Part shown: in pieces, positions 35,329 to 47,145 of the stretch
Position numbering within the stretch: position 1 is the first letter of the stretch
Layout: each line of letters begins with the position of its first letter
Origin: an uncultured Candidatus Rokubacteria bacterium
GTDB taxonomy: Bacteria; Methylomirabilota; Methylomirabilia; Rokubacteriales; CSP1-6
Assembly: GCA_963771355.1 (NCBI GenBank)
Contig: CAVYTA010000005.1
Coordinates: 896,001 to 960,000 of the forward strand
Reading direction: 5' to 3'
Length of the DNA stretch: 64,000 nucleotides
Notes under the pieces: generated by a model
Database searches by the model: none
What the model saw: only the letters and a program-made list of their open reading frames with translations
What the model was told of the DNA's origin: nothing
Program-made: the position numbers and the translations under genes

Positions 35329-36038
35329 GCGATCTGGCCGCCCGCGTCGCCGGCCTTGCCCTGGGAGGCCATCGGGGCCGAGCTGGACGCGCGCGGCTTC
35401 GCCACCACTGGACCCGCTGCTCGACGCGGCGGAGTGCGCCGAGCTGGCCGCGCTGCTATGGCGAGGAGCGCCGCTTCCGGAGCCGCGTGGACATGGCGCG
35501 CTTTCGCTTCGGAGTGGGCGAGTACAAGTACTTCGCCGCTCCGCTCCCCGAGCCGGTGGCGACACTCCGCGAGCGCCTCTACCCGCGCCTGGCGCCCATC
35601 GCCAACCGCTGGATGGAGCGGCTCGGCACGCGCGAGCGCTACCCGGACGCTCTGGACGGGCTCGCCCGCCTCTGCGCCCGTCATGGCCAGACCAAGCCCA
35701 CGCCGCTCCTGCTGCACTACACCGCCGGCGGCTATAACTGCCTGCACCAGGATCTCTACGGGGCGGTGGCGTTTCCGCTCCAGGCCACCGTGCTGCTGAG
35801 CGACCCGGCGGCGGATTTCACCGGGGGCGAGTTCCTGCTGGTGGAGCAGCGCCCCCGCGCCCAGTCGGCCGGGCACGTGGTCCCGCTGCGACAGGGGGAA
35901 GCGGTGCTGTTCGCCACGCGCCACCGGCCCGCCCGGGGCGCCCGCGGCTGGTATCGCGCCCAGCTCCGCCACGGCGTGAGCGAGGTACGGTCGGGCGAGC
36001 GCTACACGCTCGGCGTCATCTTCCACGACGCGGAGTGA
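35325..36038 (+). CDS. 2OG-Fe(II) oxygenase (DUF2086-like); three compensating indels near the 5' end
   Basis: GEYKYF, YNCLHQDLYG, GGEFLLVEQRPR, RHGVS, GVIFHDA. Confidence 0.88.
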   Translation: MSDLAARVAGLALGGHRGRAGRARLRHHWTRCSTRRSAPSWPRCYGEERRFRSRVDMARFRFGVGEYKYFAAPLPEPVATLRERLYPRLAPIANRWMERLGTRERYPDALDGLARLCARHGQTKPTPLLLHYTAGGYNCLHQDLYGAVAFPLQATVLLSDPAADFTGGEFLLVEQRPRAQSAGHVVPLRQGEAVLFATRHRPARGARGWYRAQLRHGVSEVRSGERYTLGVIFHDAE

Positions 36039-36054
36039 GCCGCCGGAGGCGCCG

Positions 36055-36828
36055 TCACTCCTTGTAGTCGAGCCCGGCGGCGGCGAACTTCGGCTTCACC
36101 GACGGAGCGGTGAGGAACGTCACGAAGGCACGCGCTACTTCGGGCGCGGTGGCCTTGGTCGCGATCCCCGCGGAGTAGACGGTCACCTTCTGCACGTCCT
36201 TGGGCAGGGGCCCCACCAGGGTCACGCCCTTCACGGGCACGATCTCGCTGATCTGGTGCACGACCATCGCGACCTCGCCCTTGGCCACCAGCTCGGCCGG
36301 GTACCCGCCGGGCACGAGGGTCGTCTTCGCCTTCATCGCGTCGGCGATGCCGAGCTGCTGGAGGACGCCGGCGAGATGAATGCCGCTGGTCGCGCCCTGG
36401 GCCGGATCGACGTAGGTGATGGACTTCGCCGCCAGCAGCGCCTGCTTGAAAGCCTCCGACGTCGAGATGTCGGGCGCGGGCGTGCCTTCACGCACGCCTA
36501 CCCCCATGCCGGTGCGGGCGATATCGGTGCGGCTGCCGGAGACGATGCGGTCCTGCTTGATCGACTCGTCGATGGCGACGTCGCTCATGATGACGACGTC
36601 CGCGGGGTCGGCGGCGAGCCGCTGGCGCGTGACCCCGACGGTCCCGAACGCCAGCGAGACCTTGTGGCCGGTCTCCTTCTCGAACGCCTGCGCCAGCTCG
36701 GTCACGATCGCCCGGACCGCGCCCGCGCTCAGCACCTGGATCTCGGCGGCCTCGGCCCGCCCGGTCCCCACCAGCGCCGCCACCGCGAGCAGGGTGGCGC
36801 CCAGCCTCCGCGTCGTCGCTCCGCTCAT
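36055..36828 (-). CDS. ModA-like substrate-binding protein
   Basis: Signal peptide, IQVLSAGAV, DPAQGATSG, QISEI, VGPLP. Lies at the C-terminal end of the chimeric 1744-aa ORF. Confidence 0.85.
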   Translation of the reverse strand: MSGATTRRLGATLLAVAALVGTGRAEAAEIQVLSAGAVRAIVTELAQAFEKETGHKVSLAFGTVGVTRQRLAADPADVVIMSDVAIDESIKQDRIVSGSRTDIARTGMGVGVREGTPAPDISTSEAFKQALLAAKSITYVDPAQGATSGIHLAGVLQQLGIADAMKAKTTLVPGGYPAELVAKGEVAMVVHQISEIVPVKGVTLVGPLPKDVQKVTVYSAGIATKATAPEVARAFVTFLTAPSVKPKFAAAGLDYKE

Positions 36829-37958
36829 CGTTCGCCTCCGTTTTTTAGTGCGTAGAAGCCCATGGCTCCACCGGCCAGGATCTGGCGCTTCGCCTCCGCC
36901 GACAGGCCCGGCCGCCGGGCGATCATCGCCGGCGCCCCGGGGAAGAAGCCGTCGGGGTGCGGGTAGTCGGTGGCCCAGAGGATCTTGTGCGGGCCGATGT
37001 ACTCGGCGAGGACGCTCAGGCTGCCCTCCACCGGCTCGAACGAGATCCAGCAATTGCGCTGGAACAGCTCGCTGGGGCGCATGGAGAGGCCGGAGTCGTT
37101 GAAGCCCGCGTCGTCGAAGTGCCGGTCCATGCGATCGAGCCAGGGCGCGATCCAGCCGCCACCGGACTCCAGGAAGGCGACGCGCAGCCGGGGATGGCGA
37201 TCGCAGACTCCGCCCCAGATCATGCTCATCGCGGCCAGCATCATCTCCATGGTGTGCGAGATGATGTGCCGCGCCCCGCGCGTCTCGAAGCGATCGACGC
37301 CCACCTGAGGCATGCCGCCGCTGGCCCCCTCGTGCAGCCCGATGGCGAAGTCGAGCTCCTGGGCCTCGCGCCAGAAGGGCTCGTTGTCCGGATGGTGCAG
37401 GGGGCGGCCCGCGTACGGGTTCGGGCGGAGGAAGCCGCCCCGCATGCCGAGCTCGCGCCGCGCGTAGCGCATCTCGGCGATGGCCGCGTCCACGGACTGC
37501 ATCGGCAGCATGGCCACGCCGAAGAGGCGATCGGGGTAGGGGCGACAGTAGTCGGCCAGCCAGCGGTTGTAGGCGCGGCACACCGCGGCGGAGAGCCCGG
37601 GATCCTGGATCGCTCCCGCGAAGAGGCCGAGGCTCGGATACAGGAACGCCGCGTCGATCCCGTCCAGGTCCATGTCGGGGATGCGGGCGTGCGGGTCGAA
37701 GCCGCCCTTGCGACCCTGGAGATACGTCATGGTGTCGTCGGCGACCACGCCCTGGCGCGCGCCGATGCCCCCGACCACCCCCAGGCCCTTCGAGCTGCCG
37801 AGCACCTGGCTCTCGATGAGCAAGCGCTCCTTGCCGTCGGTGTCGATCACGAGCCGGGGCGCCCGATCGCGGTAGGCCGGGTCCATGTAGGTGGTCCATA
37901 GATCCAGCGGCTCGAGGATGTGCCCGTCGGCGTCGATGATGTCGTAGGTGCGTCCCAT
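36825..37958 (-). CDS. Amidohydrolase-2 family metalloenzyme (ACMSD/LigI-like)
   Basis: IDADGHILEP, DMDLDGID, LESGGGW, ILWATDYPHPD; AAGGAG RBS. Confidence 0.9.
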   Translation of the reverse strand: MGRTYDIIDADGHILEPLDLWTTYMDPAYRDRAPRLVIDTDGKERLLIESQVLGSSKGLGVVGGIGARQGVVADDTMTYLQGRKGGFDPHARIPDMDLDGIDAAFLYPSLGLFAGAIQDPGLSAAVCRAYNRWLADYCRPYPDRLFGVAMLPMQSVDAAIAEMRYARRELGMRGGFLRPNPYAGRPLHHPDNEPFWREAQELDFAIGLHEGASGGMPQVGVDRFETRGARHIISHTMEMMLAAMSMIWGGVCDRHPRLRVAFLESGGGWIAPWLDRMDRHFDDAGFNDSGLSMRPSELFQRNCWISFEPVEGSLSVLAEYIGPHKILWATDYPHPDGFFPGAPAMIARRPGLSAEAKRQILAGGAMGFYALKNGGER

Positions 37959-37969
37959 GGCCGGTCTCC

Positions 37970-40023
37970 TTACGGACGCACGCAGTTGATGTAGGTCCAG
38001 CAGCAGCGGAACGCGTCCCGGCCGCCGAACAGCGTGTCCATCGCGTGGCGGATGAGGGCCAGCCGGTCGGCGACGGCTTCCCCCGCGGGCGCCTTGCCGT
38101 CGATCTTGGCGGAGCCGCCCACCCAGCCCAGCACCGCCTCGTGGTAGGCGCTGAGGAATTCGAACCAGTCGGCGACTTGGGCCTCGATGGAGCGCGCCCG
38201 ACGTCCTCCACCGCGAAGCCGGCTTGCTCGAGTTCGCGCAGGTAGAAGTCCAGCGGGCGCACCGGCAGGAACACCTGATCGCGGTGGGCGAGGTGCGCCT
38301 GGATGCGGGGCGCGTCGTCGAGCAGGGGCCGGTAGGCAGCATAGCGCGCTTCGTTGCGGACCAGACCGGTCGCGACCTCGTGGATGGCCCAAACCGTCTC
38401 GTCCAGGAGCCATTCACTGGGCCCGGCGTGGGGATTGCGGATATTGCCCGACTGTACGAAGGCGCGCCCGCCCGGCCGCAGCACGCGGGCCCAGGAGCCG
38501 AGGGTGTCGGCGAGGTCCCGGTACAGATGGATGGCGTTGGTGGAGGCGAGCACGTCCGCCTTGCGCGCCAGCAGCTCCGGCCCCATCACCTCCTCGAGGA
38601 GCTCGAGCCGCCGCGCCTCCTTGAGCCAGCGCAGGAGCCGGAAGCCGATGCGCTCCTCGCCGCCGAACTTGTCGAGGGCGACGCGGAGGAACTTGGGGGA
38701 GCTGTCCACGATCAGCGTCCCGACGTGGCGGTCGAAGATTCTCAGGTTGAGCCGATCGAGGAGGATCCCGGTGCCCCCCGAGTAGTCGATGAGGAGCTGG
38801 CCATCTTCGAGGTGGCGCGCCAGGTCCTCGACCGTCGGATCGAGGTTCCGGTACCAGCCGTGGTTCTCGACGGTGTCGTACCGGAGGCCGAAGGTGTCCA
38901 TGGGCTGCTGGACCCAGTCCTGCTCGGGAATGCGCGCGAAGCCGGAGGGCCACTGGAAGCGCCTCCGCGGCCCGCGCGCCGACTGGATGGGGGCGCTGAC
39001 GGCGGCGTGGATGCGCAGAAGATCCGGGATGGTGGCGGCCGGCCGCCGGCCCCAGCCGCACTCGGTGGCGACCCCGAATCCGGACACGAAGCGGTGGGCC
39101 GTCTCGATGCGGCGGCGCGTGCCCTCGACGCCGTCGGTGTGGTGCAGCAGACCCAGGTAGAGCTCGGTCTCGGCGCGCAGGCGGAGATCCCGCAGCGGCG
39201 CATAGTAAGCCTCGTCGAGCCGCTCCCGCGGGACGGGCAGGTGGATCCAGGTGAGGGGCCGCCCCAGGCTCGCCGCCAGCGCATTGGCGACCTCGACGAG
39301 CTTGCCCGCGTCGGCCGGCTCCTTGAAGTGGCGATGCTGGACGTCGCCGTAGCAGAGGTGATAGCCGAGCTGGACGTCCGGGGGCACGTGGCGCGAGATC
39401 CGGAGCAGCCGCTCCAGGATGCCGCCCTTGACGTCGCCGAACCAGACCGGGAACACCCCCTCCAGCATCCCGAGCTCGAAATTGGTATCCCACTGGATGG
39501 CGAGCTGATCGTGCGGCAATTCCTGGAGGATGGTCCGGAGCTCGCCGAGCACCTGCTCCTCGTAGACGGGCTCGAGGAGCTCCTGATGCTCGGGCACCAC
39601 GAAGGCGCTGATGGGGGCGAGCGGGGTGGGCAGACAGACCTGGAAGCGACAGGCCACCGGCACCACGCCGTCACGCTTGAGGCGCGCGAAGACCCGATAG
39701 GAGGACAGTGCCGCGTCCGCATACCCGAGGGCGCCAAAGGTCACGCTCTCCGCGCGCGCGCCGGCGGCCAGGCGGACGCGGGGCAACGGCCGCCAGCTGT
39801 CGGCGCCGGGCGGCACCACCTCGAGCTGGCGCTGGGTGGTGAAGACGGGCAGCTGCCACACGATCCAGTCGGACCGGGGGCCGGTCTCGCCGTCAGGGAT
39901 GCGGCGGAGGCGGTCGCCGATCTCATCGGCGACGGTGCGGAACACGGCCTCCGAGCTGGCCAGCGGCACGCTGCCGACCAGATGGGCGCCGGATGCCGCG
40001 AGATCGGGGGAGACGTTGCTCAT
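37970..40023 (-). CDS. Fusion of MetE/UROD-like Zn domain and class I SAM-dependent methyltransferase; frameshift at ~38200
   Basis: HLVGSVP, PDGETG, YHLCYGD and TECGWGR, then in-frame IDYSGGTG, VDSS, NAIHLY, RVLRPGG. The C-terminal tail continues in ORF 37970..38413. Confidence 0.8.
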
Positions 40024-40106
40024 GACGGCTCCGAGCATCTGCCCAAAGCCAACCAGGGTCAAGACGGGCCAACGCAGCTCAAGGCGGCGCCGCGTCGCCG
40101 TCGCGC

Positions 40107-41615
40107 TCAGGCGTTGATGTTGGCCTCGAGGATTGCCGGCGACACCTTCCAGGCGGCGGCCGGCTCCGCCTCCAGCCGTCGCTGCAAGGCCTCCAGCTCC
40201 CGCTTGAACAGGCCGAACGCCTCGGCTCCCGCGGCGTCCAGCGCGAGATAGCCGAAGTCCTGGAGCAGCGGCGCCCGACGCACGTGCAGGTTGAAGTTCG
40301 CGTTGACCAGTCGCTGATACACGTCGAGGGGCTCGCGCTGGCCGCTCCGGTAGACCCGCACCGGCTGGACGTGGGTCCACATCTGATAGTTCCAGAGGCC
40401 CGTGCCGAGGATCTCGTGCTCCACCGTCCCCATGTAGATGAACGCGGCGACCAGCCGCGCCAGGGAGAGCACCGTGAGCACGTCGCCGATCAGCGGCCGG
40501 ATCCCGCCGGGCACAGTGCGCTCGAGGGTCTCCGCCCAGGCCGCCACCGCGTGATCGCCGCGCAACGCCGCGTCGGACGCGTAGTAGAGCGCCAGGTAGC
40601 GCCGCGCGTGCGCGTGCATCACGTCGAAGTGCGCGGCGCGGTTCGCCAGGGCGGGCGTGTCGAAGCCGGCCCCGGCGATGCCCCGGCGCTCCGCGTCGCG
40701 GTGGGGGTCGAGCCCGGTGATGTCGTAGGCCGGCCAGGTCTCCGTGAAGAGCCCGCACATCCCGCGGTGGGTGAAGCTGAAGATCGAGTCGAACTCGCCC
40801 CCCGGGGACATCTGGCCCTTGGTCACGAGCTCGTTGCTGAACTGGGTCCCGAACATGTGGGGCCAGAGCAGGCGCCGCAGCGGGTGGGCGGCCGGCAGGC
40901 AGCTCCGGGTCGCGATGGCGAGGAGCCCCCCCGCGGCGAGGTGCACCCAGTTGAAGTGCCGCACCAGGGAGACATCGGTGGTGGCCGCGCAGAGCGCGAG
41001 CCGCGTCGCCAGCGACCAGCTCGCGTCCCCGGGCACGTTCGTCCCGAGCTCGCTCTCGATCCGCGCCGCCTCCAGGCGGCGGGCCCCCGCGTTCACGTTG
41101 AACAGCACCCGCACGCCCAGGGAGCGCAGGCCTTGATGGTGCTCGTGGCGGGCGAGCCGCCGCAGGTCCCACTGGAAGCCGCCCTCCGGCGCCCGCTCCA
41201 CGTAGCAGGCGTAGGGCCCCGCGACGGCGAGCGACCCCAGGTCCACGGGCCCCTGGTACTCGGGCGGCAGCACGGGAGCGGGAAGGCACTTACGGTGGGC
41301 GGGGGTGTAGGCCTCGTCCAGGGCCTTGTGCGGATCCGCGTCGATGGCGGGCAGTCCCGGCTCCATGGGCGAGAGTCCACCATAGAGACCCACCTGCAAG
41401 TCGTAGAAGCGGGACTTGATCGCGGACGCCTCGTCGTCGGGCACATGGTCGCCGACGAGAACGTTCGCCACCGGGATTCGCGGGAACTGACTGGCGAGGC
41501 TCACCGCCCCGAGCGTTCGCCCGTCGTCCTGCGGCACCGGGATCCGCACCGGCTTGTTCGCGCCGAGCTTCAGGACTGCGAGCTTGTTCCAGACCGCCTT
41601 GCGGACCGTCCACAT
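40107..41615 (-). CDS. Lipoxygenase family protein (catalytic domain only)
   Basis: HFNWVHL (HxxxxH), LPAAHPLRRLLWPH, YYASDAALRGD..VAAWA, TVEHE, C-terminal ANINA. Confidence 0.85.
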   Translation of the reverse strand: MWTVRKAVWNKLAVLKLGANKPVRIPVPQDDGRTLGAVSLASQFPRIPVANVLVGDHVPDDEASAIKSRFYDLQVGLYGGLSPMEPGLPAIDADPHKALDEAYTPAHRKCLPAPVLPPEYQGPVDLGSLAVAGPYACYVERAPEGGFQWDLRRLARHEHHQGLRSLGVRVLFNVNAGARRLEAARIESELGTNVPGDASWSLATRLALCAATTDVSLVRHFNWVHLAAGGLLAIATRSCLPAAHPLRRLLWPHMFGTQFSNELVTKGQMSPGGEFDSIFSFTHRGMCGLFTETWPAYDITGLDPHRDAERRGIAGAGFDTPALANRAAHFDVMHAHARRYLALYYASDAALRGDHAVAAWAETLERTVPGGIRPLIGDVLTVLSLARLVAAFIYMGTVEHEILGTGLWNYQMWTHVQPVRVYRSGQREPLDVYQRLVNANFNLHVRRAPLLQDFGYLALDAAGAEAFGLFKRELEALQRRLEAEPAAAWKVSPAILEANINA

Positions 41616-41625
41616 GGGGCGTGAC

Positions 41626-44430
41626 CTATCGCGCTTCCTTGAAGGCGCCGTCCGACTCGGCGCCGCGGCGCGGCTTCCACTCGAGCGAGTAGTATTCCCC
41701 GCGGTCACGGGCCCAGGGGTCGAACGCGTTGACCACGTGGTCCAGCTCCGGCGCCAGCTCGGGGATGGCCCGGAGCAGCACCCGCTTCAGCGGCGAGACC
41801 TCCATCTCGTGACCGTTGGGCTGGCCCTTCTCCATGCGCGAGTCGGGGCCGTTCTGGTTCACCCACTGCACGCCGAGGTGGGTGTAGAACTCCGGCCGGA
41901 AGCTGGAGGTGAAGAACCGGTCGCTGAACAGCCGGCGCGAGGCGTTGAGGATGAACACCTGGAACTGCGTCTCGGAGATGGCGAAGCCGTGGGGCCGGGG
42001 GAACTCCGCCAGCCAGCCGACCACGGTGTCGACGTCCTCGACGTTGTCGACGAGCGAGCCGTCGGGATGGCCGAGGCAATCGGTGATCCGGCTGCCGTCG
42101 GCGTTGACCTGCGCGTCGGTGATGACCTTGGACGCGTCGCACCGGTGCTGCCCGTAGACTTGCCGCAGCAGGCCCACCAGCCGCTCCTGCTCCAGCCGCT
42201 CGGGCGAGCCCTTGGCCAGGCGCGTGTCGACGAAGTCGTCGAAACGGGTGAGCTGGCGCAGCCCGTACTGCCGCCGGAACTCGTTGAAGCGCGGGACGCC
42301 GCGCTCGCGGTCCCGGATCAGGTCCAGCGCGGCGACGTCGATCTTGCCCGTCGCGCTCTGCAGCCGCGGCAGCTCGAGGTTCTGGAGGAACTGCGGGTGG
42401 TTCTGCAGGGTGAGGGCGCCCAGGCGCTGCCGGCCCATCGAGAGCGCCCAGCTCGCGAGCCCGCGCTCGCGCATCGCCTGGGTGGCGCGCCCGCGGAACG
42501 ACTCGACCACGGGGACCTTCATGCGCACCAGGTTGGGATCGGCGTCCCACTGCCGGTACTCGATCAGGTCGGGGACGAGGGCATGCAGGCGATAGACGGT
42601 GACGAACTCCTCCGGGAAGTTGAACGGCGAGCCGAAGTGGTTGACCCCGCCGTTGACGTGCTCCGGGTTGGCCAGGCTCCAGGGGGCGCCGTCGGTCGTC
42701 TTGCCGCTGCCCAGGCCGAAGATTCCGGGCCCGGACGCGAAGACCGAGTACCACTGCGTGGTGGCCTTCTCGTCCGTCGAGGTCCCGAGGCGGGCGGTGA
42801 TGCGCTCGAGCGCCCGCTCGACGAGCTCGCGGCCGCGGAAGAGCCCGTGCCAGTTGGCGTTCATGCCCAGGTAGAGTGGCTCGTCATAGAGGAGCTGCGG
42901 TGTCCATTCGGTGGTGTGGATCTTGGCGATCCCCGCCGAGACCACGAGCCGCGCGACCTCGAAGAGCTCGTCGGCGGTGATGTCCCGATAGCGGATGACC
43001 AGGGCCGGCCGGTCGGGGTGGCGGAGCCCGGAGTCGGCATCAGGCGTCGCCGCCGCCTGCGTGCGGAAGGCGTCGACGAAGAGGTTGTGCTCGCGGGCGA
43101 ACACCGTGTGGTAGAAGCTCATCCCGATCGTCCAGTTGTCCGGGAAGCCGGTGGCCTCCTGGCCCGCCCACTGCGGCAGCATGGGATCGGACGGCTCGAG
43201 CAGCGGCAGGTAGCCCTGCCGCTCACCCGCGCCCGCCCGCTGGCCGAGGGAGACCAGCAGGAGCTTCGCGGCATCGCTGGGCGCGCGCTTCACGCGGCGG
43301 CGGGATGTCTCGTCGTGGCCGTAGATCTGCGAGGCGTCCCACCACGCGGTCACGTTGTTGTGCGTGGTCCGGTATGGCCGCGCCAGGTGCTCCTTGCCGC
43401 CGTGGCTGAAGGTCGCCGGGTCGCCGCTCTCGGCGATGAGCGCGGGGTCCACGCGGTCGCCCGGGCGACACCCCTGCGACGCCGCCGCGCAGCCGACCGC
43501 CATCGTCCCCGGCCCGTTCCGTCCCTCCTGCAGGTGGGAGAACCAGTCGTGCGTCATGAACTGGATCCAGAACGCGGCAAGCACGTTGAAGAACGGCGCC
43601 TTCTTGTAGTCGCAGTGGGCGTCCGCCGGCGCGCCCGGCAGGCCGTGGCCCTCGCGGCAGCGCTCCGGCTGCGACTGCGCCCGCGTGAAGAGCGTGCGGC
43701 TGATCACCTGCGGGTCCGGCGTGAGCAGACCCAGCCGATCGCCGTGGCGGTTGCGGGCGAGCGCGTCCTTGCCCAGCTCGGGGAACGTCGCCTCGAACTG
43801 CACGTTGCGGGCGAACGGCTGCTGCGACGATCCCATCAGCGGGTTCGTGATGTCGTTGCAGAGGCCGGTCAGGTGGCGGAAGCGGATCTGCTCACTTCGG
43901 CACACTTGCGTCCCGTCGCCGCCCACCGCCTCGTAGAGCGCGTGCCCCTTGGGAAGCCGCATCGCGGGCCAGACTTTCAGCGCCCGCCCGGCCACACCGT
44001 CGCGCCCGCGCACATAGTCCGGGTACGTGCCGCTGCTGTCGAACAGGTTGAACTTGATCAGCTCGATGCGCTGATACTCGAGATCGAGGAGCGCGCCGTC
44101 GATGCCCCGGCCGTCGGCGTCGAGGTGACCGGTCCCCGATCCGGGGAAGCGGCTGCCCGCGTCACCCGTTGCCCAGTAGCTCTGCCAGTCGAGCCAGGGC
44201 ACGCCGCGCCACGCCACCGCCCGCTCGCCGCCCCGGCAGCGCGCGGTGTCCTCCTGGACCTTTCCGAGGAATCGCTCGGCGCGCTCCTCGCCGATGGGAC
44301 GAAGCCCGCCCAGCGCCAGCCCGAGGCAGGCATCGATGGTTTCCCGCTTGGCGGCACAGCCTGCGAGGGTTACGGCGACGGTGAGGGTCGCCACGAGGCC
44401 GGCGACGGCGGGCGAGCTGGACAGGAGCAT
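41626..44430 (-). CDS. Heme peroxidase-cyclooxygenase superfamily protein (alpha-dioxygenase-like), putative lipoprotein
   Basis: LAGC lipobox; WIQFMTHDW, WWDASQIYG, KIHTTEWTP, EEFVTVYRLH, DRERGVPRFNEFRR, SRRLFSDRFFT; AGGAGGT RBS. Confidence 0.9.
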   Translation of the reverse strand: MLLSSSPAVAGLVATLTVAVTLAGCAAKRETIDACLGLALGGLRPIGEERAERFLGKVQEDTARCRGGERAVAWRGVPWLDWQSYWATGDAGSRFPGSGTGHLDADGRGIDGALLDLEYQRIELIKFNLFDSSGTYPDYVRGRDGVAGRALKVWPAMRLPKGHALYEAVGGDGTQVCRSEQIRFRHLTGLCNDITNPLMGSSQQPFARNVQFEATFPELGKDALARNRHGDRLGLLTPDPQVISRTLFTRAQSQPERCREGHGLPGAPADAHCDYKKAPFFNVLAAFWIQFMTHDWFSHLQEGRNGPGTMAVGCAAASQGCRPGDRVDPALIAESGDPATFSHGGKEHLARPYRTTHNNVTAWWDASQIYGHDETSRRRVKRAPSDAAKLLLVSLGQRAGAGERQGYLPLLEPSDPMLPQWAGQEATGFPDNWTIGMSFYHTVFAREHNLFVDAFRTQAAATPDADSGLRHPDRPALVIRYRDITADELFEVARLVVSAGIAKIHTTEWTPQLLYDEPLYLGMNANWHGLFRGRELVERALERITARLGTSTDEKATTQWYSVFASGPGIFGLGSGKTTDGAPWSLANPEHVNGGVNHFGSPFNFPEEFVTVYRLHALVPDLIEYRQWDADPNLVRMKVPVVESFRGRATQAMRERGLASWALSMGRQRLGALTLQNHPQFLQNLELPRLQSATGKIDVAALDLIRDRERGVPRFNEFRRQYGLRQLTRFDDFVDTRLAKGSPERLEQERLVGLLRQVYGQHRCDASKVITDAQVNADGSRITDCLGHPDGSLVDNVEDVDTVVGWLAEFPRPHGFAISETQFQVFILNASRRLFSDRFFTSSFRPEFYTHLGVQWVNQNGPDSRMEKGQPNGHEMEVSPLKRVLLRAIPELAPELDHVVNAFDPWARDRGEYYSLEWKPRRGAESDGAFKEAR

Positions 44431-44467
44431 GGGGCACCTCCTACTTCGGGTCGGAGCGGCTGCGGAG

Positions 44468-44546
44468 ATTCTATACTCGGGCGGAGGAAAGCGTGTCATC
44501 GCCGGTCGAACTTCGGGCGCTCGACCCCGCCCGGGTGCGCTAGGAT
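44468..44546. promoter_or_regulatory. Divergent promoter region
   Basis: Minus-strand TAGAAT (44468-44473) upstream of the dioxygenase RBS; plus-strand TAGGAT (44541-44546) 6 nt before the TauD ATG. Confidence 0.5.
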
Positions 44547-44552
44547 CGCCCC

Positions 44553-45404
44553 ATGGTCGAGGTGCGGCGACTGGGTCCCCAGGTCGGGGCCGAGGTGCGG
44601 GGCGTCGACGTCCGGACGCTCGACGACGCCGGGTTCGCGGCGGTCTACCGCGCGTGGCTCGACTGCAACGTCCTCGTGATCCCGGAGCAGGACCTCGCGA
44701 TCGAGGACTTCCTGCGCTACAGCCGCCGCTTCGGGGTGATCCACCCGCACCCCTCGAAGATGACTCGACACCCCGAGCATCCCGAGATCACCCTGCTCGG
44801 GGTGGACAAGTTCGGGCCCGACGGCGCGCTCGACATGGCGATCTACCGGCGGGGCGCCGAGGGCTGGCACACCGACGGCGCCTACGACGAAGAGCCGTTC
44901 AAGGCCACCCAGCTCTACGCCCTTGCGGTGCCGAGCCGGGGCGGCGACACGCACTTCGCCAGCATGTACGCGGCGTACGACGCGCTGCCCGCGCCGCTGA
45001 AGGCGCGCCTCGAGGGCCGGCGCGGGGCCTTCACCTACGGCGGCCGTAAGAAGGCCACCGCCCTGCTCGACCAGGAGGACCGTGAGTGGACACCGGTCCA
45101 CCACCCGATCGTCCGGACGCACCCGGAGACCGGGCGGAAGGCGCTCTACTTCGATCCCGGCAAGATCCTGCGCATCGAGGGGGTGGAGGCGGCCGAGAGC
45201 GACGCGCTCATCGAGGAGCTCACCGAGCGCATGATCCAGCCCGGCGGCGAGTACACCCACCGCTGGCGCAAGGGAGACGTCGTCATCTGGGACAACCGCT
45301 GCTCCTACCACAAGGCGGCGGGCGACTACCCGCCCGAGGAAGACCGCATCCACTGGCGCGTGTCCATCAAGGAAAGCCCGGGCCCCTCGAGCGCAGCCGC
45401 CTGA
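44553..45404 (+). CDS. TauD/TfdA family 2OG-dependent dioxygenase
   Basis: WHTDG, GGDTHFA, HPIVRTHPETG, WDNRCSYH. Confidence 0.92.
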   Translation: MVEVRRLGPQVGAEVRGVDVRTLDDAGFAAVYRAWLDCNVLVIPEQDLAIEDFLRYSRRFGVIHPHPSKMTRHPEHPEITLLGVDKFGPDGALDMAIYRRGAEGWHTDGAYDEEPFKATQLYALAVPSRGGDTHFASMYAAYDALPAPLKARLEGRRGAFTYGGRKKATALLDQEDREWTPVHHPIVRTHPETGRKALYFDPGKILRIEGVEAAESDALIEELTERMIQPGGEYTHRWRKGDVVIWDNRCSYHKAAGDYPPEEDRIHWRVSIKESPGPSSAAA

Positions 45405-45408
45405 TCCC

Positions 45409-47145
45409 TCATCCGCGGCATCCGCCCGGCACCCCGAGCGGCTGCCGTCCCCCTGGTCGTATCCACACCTGCCCGTTCCGGTACCGGTTGATGGTCCAGT
45501 CATCGACGACGCAGACAAACCCCGCCCGGCGCGCGTAGTCGATCAGCGCGGCGTCCATGGGCGGGTTCCAGTGGAAGCGAAAGGGACCGAAGCCGCCCAC
45601 GATCGCGGCGGGAGGCGAGACGGCGAACAATGTGTCGAGCGTGGCCGGCCCCACCCCGCGCAGCTTCGCTACCCGTTCCGCGGAATAGGCGTCCGCGCTG
45701 CGAAAGAAGAAGGGGCCCGCGGCGAATTCCGGGAGCACGCGATTCACGTCCATGACGACGATGGGAAACAGCGTGGCGACGTGCCCCGCCACGCCGTGCT
45801 GCGCGAGGATCTGCGCAATCCAGACGGCGCTGCGGTGAGTCTGGATGCCCGTCCAGTGATCCAGGTCCGCACTCCGCACGAGCAGGCGACCGTAACTCTG
45901 GAAAGCCGGGACGGCGGGCGCGAGACTGACGATCAGCAGCGCCGCCGCCAGCCATCGAGGAAGGCCGGGTCGGGCCGCGGCATAGGCGCGTCCCGCCAGC
46001 AAGGTGCCGAGCGCCGCCACCGGCGCGAAATACATCGCAAACGGGCCGACCAAGGTGGCGAACGTCAGGGCGCCTCCGAACAATCCCGCCAGCGCGATCG
46101 TTCGCGCGTCCCAGTGGCGTGGACGCCAGTGCTCCCGAAACCCGCGGCGGGCCAGAACGATCGCGGAAAAGGCGAAGATGCAGAGGATGGTGGCGTTGCC
46201 GTGGCGGATCATTTGTCCCGGCAAGGACCTCACCTTGCGCTCGAGGGTCAGCAAATCGCCAATACCTTGCGCGCGATACCAGTCATACCCCGCGGTCAGG
46301 TGAAACTGCAGCGTCAAGAACACGAAGCGGTCCTGGTGGACCACCAGGTAATAGATCAGCGGGAGTATGGCCAGGGTGGCTCCGGCCAGGAACGATCCGG
46401 TGCGCGGGGCGCGAAAGGGCCGATTCGCTTCGCGGCGGACGTACTCGTCGTACAGGAAGGTGGCGGCCAGCACCGGGGCGGCAAAGAGATACGTATACTT
46501 TGTCGCCGCCGCCAGCGCCACGAAGAAGCCCCCCGACATCGTCCGGGCGGCGCTCTGCGAGATCGCGCCATCCGCGCCGAGACAGAGCCGCAGTCCCACC
46601 AGCAAGAAGACCAGCGGCATGATGTCATTCCGGGAGTAGACCAGGGGACCCTTGGTGAACGGAGACGTCGCGAACGCGAGGACCAGCGCCAAGGCGCCGA
46701 CTCGACCGGTCCCGCAGGAGCGCAGCAGGGAAAAGAGTAGCGCACAGGAGCCGAACGCCAAGAGCCAGGTCACCACACGCGCGGCCAGCAGGTACCAGCC
46801 GTCGAGCGCGTCGAAGACCACGCCCAGGATCCAGGTGTAAAGCGGGGGTTGAAAGGAGATGAAGTCGCGATACACGGACAGCCCCCGCGCAAAATATGCG
46901 CCCGCCACGTACTGCTCCTCGTCGTAGTTCAACCGTGTCGTCATGGCGGCCGCGAACAGGACCACGGCAAGGGCGACGAAGGCAGCGGTGAGCGCGAGGC
47001 GGGTGGCGAGTCGACTCTTACCCCACTTAAGCGTTACGCGGATCCATTCCGACCACCGGGAATCAAGAAAATCAATGCCAGTGGCGGCCAGACGCGGGAG
47101 AAACACGAACCCCACTATACTCCGCGATCTGCCGGCGCCCATCAA
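45409..47145 (-). CDS. GT-C fold membrane glycosyltransferase-like protein (ArnT/PMT-like); start uncertain
   Basis: Multi-TM protein; NYDEEQY after the first TM, YRDF..FQPPLY, AAATKY. Confidence 0.65.
   Translation of the reverse strand: MMGAGRSRSIVGFVFLPRLAATGIDFLDSRWSEWIRVTLKWGKSRLATRLALTAAFVALAVVLFAAAMTTRLNYDEEQYVAGAYFARGLSVYRDFISFQPPLYTWILGVVFDALDGWYLLAARVVTWLLAFGSCALLFSLLRSCGTGRVGALALVLAFATSPFTKGPLVYSRNDIMPLVFLLVGLRLCLGADGAISQSAARTMSGGFFVALAAATKYTYLFAAPVLAATFLYDEYVRREANRPFRAPRTGSFLAGATLAILPLIYYLVVHQDRFVFLTLQFHLTAGYDWYRAQGIGDLLTLERKVRSLPGQMIRHGNATILCIFAFSAIVLARRGFREHWRPRHWDARTIALAGLFGGALTFATLVGPFAMYFAPVAALGTLLAGRAYAAARPGLPRWLAAALLIVSLAPAVPAFQSYGRLLVRSADLDHWTGIQTHRSAVWIAQILAQHGVAGHVATLFPIVVMDVNRVLPEFAAGPFFFRSADAYSAERVAKLRGVGPATLDTLFAVSPPAAIVGGFGPFRFHWNPPMDAALIDYARRAGFVCVVDDWTINRYRNGQVWIRPGGRQPLGVPGGCRG

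Follow-up and report, generated by a model that had tools for sequence, protein, structure and literature searches.

Described oxylipin pathways pair an enzyme that makes a hydroperoxide with an enzyme that converts it, as in the fungal dioxygenase (DOX)-P450 fusions and the Nostoc 10S-DOX with its catalase-related lyase (excerpts of PMC13049297), and in the PA2077/PA2078 diol synthase operon of Pseudomonas aeruginosa (excerpts of PMC4496055). In each of these three systems a fatty-acid dioxygenase has a second metal enzyme as its partner or fusion domain. However, all three oxygenate mid-chain carbons, their partner enzymes are a catalase, a P450 or a di-haem enzyme, and none of them combines an alpha-dioxygenase (alpha-DOX) with a lipoxygenase fold. 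This combination is encoded in the 64,000-nucleotide stretch of DNA analysed here (the window), which comes from an uncultured Candidatus Rokubacteria bacterium. Two adjacent minus-strand genes form its core: gene 1 (44430-41626), encoding an alpha-dioxygenase-type haem enzyme of 934 amino acids (aa) that is a predicted lipoprotein, and gene 2 (41615-40107), encoding a lipoxygenase-fold protein of 502 aa that consists of the catalytic domain only. The two genes are interpreted as a widespread, apparently uncharacterised cassette and a variant of the known two-enzyme oxylipin systems, which likely makes an undescribed oxidised lipid.

No description of an alpha-DOX and lipoxygenase-fold pair was found in the open-access literature, a coverage from which most subscription journals are missing, and to this extent the first-pass annotation of this DNA was right in stating that no described pathway unites the two oxygenase families of genes 1 and 2. 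The pair is absent from the accessible parts of PMC9305512, PMC9524268, PMC6612559 and PMC4490225. Alpha-DOX sequences have been noted in five bacterial phyla, in a text whose accessible part contains no occurrence of 'lipoxygenase' (PMC8720084). Similarly, a preprint that cites the description of Pseudonocardia acaciae (10.1101/2022.06.21.497025) has no occurrence of 'dioxygenase' or 'peroxidase' in the accessible part of its text. The single PF00305 match of P. acaciae is a member of the gene 2 family, so lipoxygenase surveys may have included it already.

Conservation of the gene pair

The first-pass annotation had linked genes 1 and 2 as representatives of two fatty-acid oxygenase families, and this link holds well beyond the window. 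The loci compared are the best 80 of 97 confirmed genome matches to the gene 2 family and the best 80 of 197 metagenome matches; about 30 of the 80 genome loci come from close actinobacterial kin, and four repeat genomes of the host's own taxonomic family. An alpha-DOX gene is present in the fetched flanks of the gene 2 homologue at 72 of the 80 genome loci, always on the same strand, lying directly upstream within 500 bp in 64 cases, downstream within 500 bp in five and within 3 kb in three, and the labelled genome loci span eight phyla. Two of the eight genome loci that lack a nearby alpha-DOX have one 12 kb upstream on the same strand, all five that were searched carry one elsewhere in the genome, and one is without upstream flank. 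An alpha-DOX gene also stands beside the gene 2 homologue at 56 of the 80 metagenome loci, and 15 of the 24 misses fall on short flanks. Genes 1 and 2 are thus very probably a functionally linked two-gene cassette.

The gene 2 family retains an alpha-DOX partner even though the partner subtype changes. The partners occur in long, short and TPR-bearing forms (groups assigned from length and identity), and a quick tree of the lipoxygenase-like protein places nine changes over four labels, 'none' included. Residues equivalent to H505, W509, T510, F609, Y613, H616, F826 and R833 of gene 1 are invariant in all 67 aligned partners, the five broken or short ones among the 72 being left out of the alignment. 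In Nitrospira sp. NFB02 (L113:6167-11488) the alpha-DOX and lipoxygenase-like domains are fused in a single open reading frame (ORF) of 1758 aa, with a glycine-rich multi-pass membrane region between them whose approximately eight hydropathy segments are too rough for sidedness, and a RoxA-like gene follows. In another genome (G098, L014:9197-10975) a long alpha-DOX is directly followed by a representative of a second lipoxygenase-like lineage, which has 27% identity to gene 2, the motif HDVLN and a C-terminal Asn.

Within the host's taxonomic family the dependence runs one way. Alpha-DOX matches are found in 19 of 159 genomes and the gene 2 family in seven, all seven with a long alpha-DOX, while the match in an eighth genome (G119) has the score of an ordinary lipoxygenase and stands alone. 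Across the phylum, nine of 251 genomes have a gene 2-like match, one of them an ordinary lipoxygenase; two genomes flagged as unpublished (G148 and G149) are counted in the totals for family and phylum, and no claim made here rests on either sequence. The one-way dependence within the family suggests that the substrate of gene 2 is made by the alpha-DOX. No catalase or P450 partner was seen beside alpha-DOX genes that lack gene 2, among 33 of the 65 listed ORFs at four loci of the family.

Several further features accompany the pair at some loci. A RoxA-like c-haem gene, of a Pfam family related to PA2077/PA2078 in the accessible part of PMC4496055, directly follows the lipoxygenase-like gene at 16 of the 80 genome and 12 of the 80 metagenome loci, mostly in Proteobacteria (L063-L089 and others). 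Loose tblastn matches to adenylate-cyclase and AAA-ATPase (STAND-like) genes lie near and upstream of the alpha-DOX at 52 of the 80 genome loci (L082-L119, L063-L089); they are divergent in the actinobacterial group and on the same strand in Burkholderiales, and the alpha-DOX there has a TPR-like N-terminus. At two loci (L121:2200-14570 in G063, and L122 in G066) the two genes stand 12 kb apart, with genes for an FAD oxidoreductase, an ABC transporter and a beta-propeller protein in the interval. In one genome a broken alpha-DOX fragment (G160:C105:3480-3873) follows one lipoxygenase-like gene, and a second pair lies on another contig.

The alpha-dioxygenase-type haem enzyme

Gene 1 matches PF03098 (An_peroxidase) with an E-value of 1e-65 in Pfam. 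In a sequence search of the Protein Data Bank (PDB) its best solved relatives are the rice and Arabidopsis alpha-DOX (E 1e-56), the next family following at 2e-6. Similarly, Foldseek places alpha-DOX at ranks 1 to 4 (E 5e-22 or better) for its structural model (mean pLDDT 67), with cyclooxygenases at about 1e-6. The haem enzyme had been labelled as cyclooxygenase-type in the first-pass annotation; as its closest solved structures are alpha-DOX in both sequence and fold, this assignment is ruled out.

Residues H294, H505, W509, T510, F609, Y613, H616, F826 and R833 of gene 1 correspond to rice H157, H311, W315, T316, F375, Y379, H382, F552 and R559 (rice residue list from the accessible part of PMC8720084, mapped with a chain offset of three). 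The enzyme therefore keeps the catalytic tyrosine (Y613), both haem histidines (H616 proximal, H294 distal) and the carboxylate clamp formed by H505, T510 and R833 (rice His311, Thr316 and Arg559), and the chain of the rice Y379F mutant, 4KVL, deviates at the Y613 column. By fold and residues gene 1 is a fatty-acid alpha-dioxygenase-type protein, with a predicted activity to match, which in this class of enzymes yields 2R-hydroperoxy fatty acids and Cn-1 aldehydes. The expected first step is accordingly oxidation at C2, in place of the mid-chain hydroperoxy or epoxy lipid formation that had been proposed for the locus.

Comparison with plant and cyanobacterial alpha-DOX (rice 4KVJ/4KVL, Arabidopsis 4HHR, CalDOX and LepDOX) shows that gene 1 shares with them the fold, the catalytic Tyr, the proximal and distal His, the Phe pair and the His/Thr/Arg carboxylate clamp. 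However, it is considerably longer (934 aa compared with about 620-650) and, unlike these enzymes, has a lipoprotein signal, conserved Cys pairs, large insertions and a lipoxygenase-fold partner gene. The lipobox LAGC occupies residues 22-25, and of ten further Cys residues eight occur in all 11 long-type homologues and the other two in 10 of them. Together, the lipobox and the conserved Cys suggest export.

The lipoxygenase-fold partner

The match of gene 2 to PF00305 (Lipoxygenase) in Pfam is barely above the cut-off (E 2e-7), and members of its family carry the database annotation 'lipoxygenase family protein'. Of 7996 proteins scored in a search for homologues, 944 reached E 0.001 or better, a number of matches rather than the size of the subfamily, and the best 120 homologues all have at least 63% identity. 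The structural model (mean pLDDT 95.8) superposes on 4G32 with a Z-score of 32.1 and a root-mean-square deviation of 3.0 over 453 residues. Twelve lipoxygenase chains score at Z 26-32, the next row being at Z 5.2, and the top Foldseek match is the active mini-lipoxygenase CspLOX2. H220, H225 and H400, which align with the iron ligands of the solved enzymes, are kept in 80 of 80 homologues, and the last residue of gene 2 superposes on the last residue of the solved lipoxygenase chains. No signal peptide was seen in gene 2 by eye or hydropathy.

The remainder of the predicted metal site is close to what is known. At the fourth-ligand position (G404) the homologues have Gly in 75 of 80 and Asp in five of 80, and the C-terminus of gene 2 reads ...ANINA, with a terminal Ala in 75 of 80. 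In the accessible part of PMC3840004 the fourth ligand of lipoxygenases is given as His, Asn, Ser or Gly, with the terminus given as Ile or Val, so that G404 lies within the range and only the terminal Ala falls outside the stated set. Any metal binding by this Ala would go through the carboxylate. An altered metal site was considered as a strong argument for novelty and is weakened by this precedent for a Gly ligand. Gene 2 is thus, on its model, a lipoxygenase fold with a near-canonical iron site; catalysis is predicted, lipoxygenases being dioxygenases of cis,cis-1,4-pentadiene fatty acids.

Bacterial mini-lipoxygenases (Cyanothece CspLOX2, 5MED; Enhygromyxa, 8X8F; Pseudomonas, 4G32) share with gene 2 the catalytic-domain fold, the HxxxxH motif with a third His, and a C-terminus at the metal-site position, at a structural identity of 16-20%. 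However, gene 2 has HEILG where these proteins have H-x-x-x-N/H, it ends in an Ala outside the Ile/Val set of the PMC3840004 excerpts, and its 502-aa protein, unlike them, is nearly always encoded with an alpha-DOX.

Proposed function and alternatives

The interpretation favoured here, held at slightly less than even confidence, is that a 2-hydroperoxy fatty acid arises through the alpha-dioxygenase and is then the substrate of the lipoxygenase-fold protein, which converts it. In the first step a Tyr613 radical would remove a C2 hydrogen from a fatty acid held in place by the clamp residues H505, T510 and R833, and the product would be a 2-hydroperoxy acid, as expected from the complete conservation of these residues with the characterised enzymes. 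In the second step the unstable hydroperoxide would be turned into a 2-oxo or 2-hydroxy acid or a chain-shortened aldehyde by a non-haem iron that gene 2 would bind through H220, H225, H400 and its C-terminal carboxylate, a step proposed from gene context only. This second step is modelled on the hydroperoxide isomerase ALOXE3 (mammalian epidermal lipoxygenase-3), a lipoxygenase fold that acts mainly by isomerising hydroperoxides (excerpts of PMC3840004). However, ALOXE3 acts on mid-chain hydroperoxyeicosatetraenoic acids, and its likeness to gene 2 is functional and inferred rather than one of demonstrated special sequence kinship. The product may serve as a signal, in defence or in detoxification.

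A number of observations weigh against this two-step scheme. What speaks most against it is location: gene 1 has the look of an exported protein and gene 2 has not, so that a short-lived hydroperoxide would have to cross the membrane. The Gly fourth ligand is inside the known range, and the sequence therefore gives no compelling reason to prefer isomerase to dioxygenase chemistry. Expressed alpha-DOX enzymes are active by themselves (excerpts of PMC8720084), and with the queries used, 11 of the 18 other genomes of the host's family that have an alpha-DOX match are without the gene 2 family. In 39 of the 67 aligned partners the distal His is retained, and in 28 it is replaced. The counts of conserved pairs also overstate independence, given the share of close actinobacterial kin among the genome loci.

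A less probable alternative, although one to be taken seriously, is that gene 2 is an ordinary lipoxygenase and that one polyunsaturated fatty acid is oxygenated by the two enzymes at different carbons, to give either an oxylipin oxygenated twice or an oxygenated C17 aldehyde. The complete fold and iron site of gene 2 and the activity of its top Foldseek match, CspLOX2, would fit such a role, and the mismatch of compartments would weigh less for stable lipids. Coupled action of a 9-lipoxygenase and an alpha-DOX has reportedly been found in plants (Hamberg, 2003). The polyunsaturated acid would probably be scavenged from plants or algae, and the window DNA is found in soil and rhizosphere runs; the host genome has two fatty-acid desaturase-family matches. 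However, an ordinary lipoxygenase taken by itself leaves unexplained why the gene 2 family is so rare without alpha-DOX, when other bacterial lipoxygenases stand alone (such as that of G119). Moreover, the terminal Ala and the Val found in 75 of 80 homologues at what we take, from the alignment and residue numbering, to be the Coffa Ala/Gly-site position both depart from characterised enzymes.

It is unlikely that gene 2 acts first or as a helper, small amounts of its lipid hydroperoxide oxidising the haem and so starting the tyrosyl radical of the alpha-dioxygenase, or its product serving as a preferred oxygenated substrate. The radical is known to be started by peroxide oxidation of haem (excerpts of PMC13049297), and both the one-way dependence and the loss of the distal His in 28 of the 67 partners would suit such an arrangement, but cyanobacterial alpha-DOX enzymes are active alone in E. 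coli (excerpts of PMC8720084) and gene 1 of the window keeps its distal His.

Beyond conversion of a 2-hydroperoxy acid as such, it is conceivable, if doubtful, that the gene 2 family is no dioxygenase but the first enzyme specialised for 2-hydroperoxy fatty acids, converting what the alpha-dioxygenase makes into C2-oxidised lipid signals of a new bacterial class, with the RoxA-like haem enzyme extending the pathway in some Proteobacteria and a Nitrospira and the cyclase-STAND proteins tying it to signalling or defence.

Neighbouring genes at the site of the pair

Downstream of the pair lie three further minus-strand genes: gene 3 (40023-37970), a MetE-like and S-adenosylmethionine (SAM)-methyltransferase fusion, gene 4 (37958-36825), an amidohydrolase-2 protein, and gene 5 (36828-36055), a ModA-like solute-binding protein. 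The five-gene arrangement given in the first-pass annotation was reproduced, with spacings of 10, 83 and 11 bp followed by a 4-bp ATGA overlap. Its family labels are likewise supported by Pfam, through the PF03098 and PF00305 matches of genes 1 and 2, PF08241 for the methyltransferase of gene 3 (E 3e-4), PF04909 (Amidohydro_2) for gene 4 (E 3e-31) and PF13531 (SBP_bac_11) for gene 5 (E 8e-37). Only the MetE-like half of the gene 3 fusion is without a Pfam match; that label draws on the name of an Atlas cluster, on a lead to PF01717 (0.81) and on an HxC...C motif in the sequence, which we assume to be of MetE type. A PDB search with an intact fusion orthologue gave chance matches only, an NCBIfam scan returned no name for any of genes 1-4, and gene 5 stays under the ModA equivalog cut-off (44.4 bits against 62.5, TIGR01256). 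Gene 4 is one of 19 tblastn matches in the host genome.

Genes 3-5 had been proposed as tailoring enzymes of the same pathway, and neighbourhood conservation speaks against it. Among the 80 genome and 80 metagenome loci, where at least 1 kb of downstream flank is present in 77 and 56 respectively, no conserved five-gene operon was found: the MetE/methyltransferase gene is near the gene 2 homologue at none of the genome and one of the metagenome loci, the ModA-like gene at none and two, and the amidohydrolase at one (27% identity, opposite strand) and none. In contrast to the pair, the fusion gene is at the same site in all seven same-genus genomes (67-100% complete), none of which has a gene 2-like gene. 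The site is flanked by a peptidase/luciferase-like/AMP-binding block on one side and a convergent block of 2OG-oxygenase, alkyltransferase, sigma and transaldolase genes on the other (working names from sequence). Neither oxygenase lies within 1.5 kb at any of 27 other fusion-gene loci, and only one of the six other family genomes with a lipoxygenase-like gene has a full-length fusion gene, on a different contig. The amidohydrolase is 3' of the fusion gene in only two of the seven same-genus genomes (G110 and G113), as a 98% identical orthologue with the pair absent. The ModA-like gene is upstream of the fusion gene in four same-genus genomes and further downstream in G110, and was not found in the stretches read of G108 and G113. 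Genes 3-5 are therefore resident neighbours, outside the cassette.

Some observations point the other way. One metagenome contig (L174) has alpha-DOX, a lipoxygenase-like gene and an intact MetE/methyltransferase gene in a row, with a ModA-like gene upstream, and on another (L177) a ModA-like gene directly follows the gene 2 homologue. However, L174 shares the whole resident gene order and is best seen as kin synteny, indicating that two or more lineages of the genus have had the cassette here, without proving joint function. That all five genes form one dedicated pathway of oxylipin making and tailoring is therefore very improbable and largely refuted by co-occurrence and synteny, in spite of the tight spacing on a single strand, the L174 and L177 arrangements and possible read-through transcription.

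Gene 3 is frameshifted in the window near 38198, where it is one base short compared with five of five relatives. The extra base is present in contigs of four of four public runs, so the frameshift is an assembly error, the 684-aa fusion is real and a pseudogene is excluded. The fusion represents an unnamed family, resident in the genus and in many members of the taxonomic family, and a stand-alone MetE-like paralogue with 44% identity to gene 3 is present in the host genome. Misassembly of the cassette into the site was rejected, as DNA contigs from runs X1 (39865-41916) and X6 (39152-41926) span the junction of genes 2 and 3. Recent horizontal arrival has no support either, with a third-position GC content (GC3) of 0.94 in both core genes and 0.92-0.95 in the neighbours.

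Other variation is seen around the site. A contig of run X1 has about 1.26 kb of extra DNA between genes 3 and 4 (window 37971-37975), and gene content thus varies between close strains. In G110 three ORFs resembling, by eye, a carrier/thioesterase, an AMP-binding enzyme and a methyltransferase lie between the amidohydrolase and the ModA-like gene (L157:2480-5787). On the other side of the pair, window 44553-47145 holds a gene of the TauD family and one for a membrane protein that matches nothing in Pfam and has a GC3 of 0.84, below the neighbours; the site lacks both in all seven same-genus genomes.

Promoter elements and transcription

A TAGAAT box (44473-44468) and an AGGAGG sequence (44442-44437) on the minus strand before gene 1 are a possible promoter and ribosome site. 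The first-pass annotation had placed all five genes behind this one -10 box and ribosome-binding site. Both elements are present, but a sigma-70 scan gave no passing site in 35500-45600, TAGAAT included, and gene 3 has an element of its own. An extended -10 search found none at the locus. The sequence TATAGAAT is kept before the gene 1 orthologue in L174. G110, whose site is empty, retains TAGAAT, in line with a loss of the cassette from that genome.

The element assigned to gene 3 is a promoter-like TTGACC-17 nt-GATGCT (40034..40062, minus strand) in the 83-bp gap, and it is aligned in relatives without the pair. A loose pattern of it, defined post hoc after alignment, occurs at 12 of 28 orthologue loci (window included) and in 0.5% of random genome windows. 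However, L174 is without this element between the lipoxygenase-like and fusion genes, and read-through transcription into gene 3 may occur, both of which count against a clean separation of gene 3 from the pair. An RNA run (X15) has a contig spanning the junction of genes 1 and 2, and none of the listed contigs spans that of genes 2 and 3; contigs cannot show a transcript.

Significance

Almost all that is known of bacterial alpha-dioxygenases concerns their use as biocatalysts, the literature found describes no native pathway for them, and bacterial lipoxygenases are held to be rare. With genes 3-5 recognised as bystanders, these three drop out of the experimental question, and the pair itself is carried by cultured organisms, namely Sorangium cellulosum So0157-2, Pseudonocardia acaciae DSM 45401, Geodermatophilus maliterrae and Sulfitobacter sp. 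EhC04. A lipoxygenase-fold family, probably with several hundred members, that travels with alpha-dioxygenases across eight phyla gives a handle on bacterial fatty-acid alpha-oxidation.

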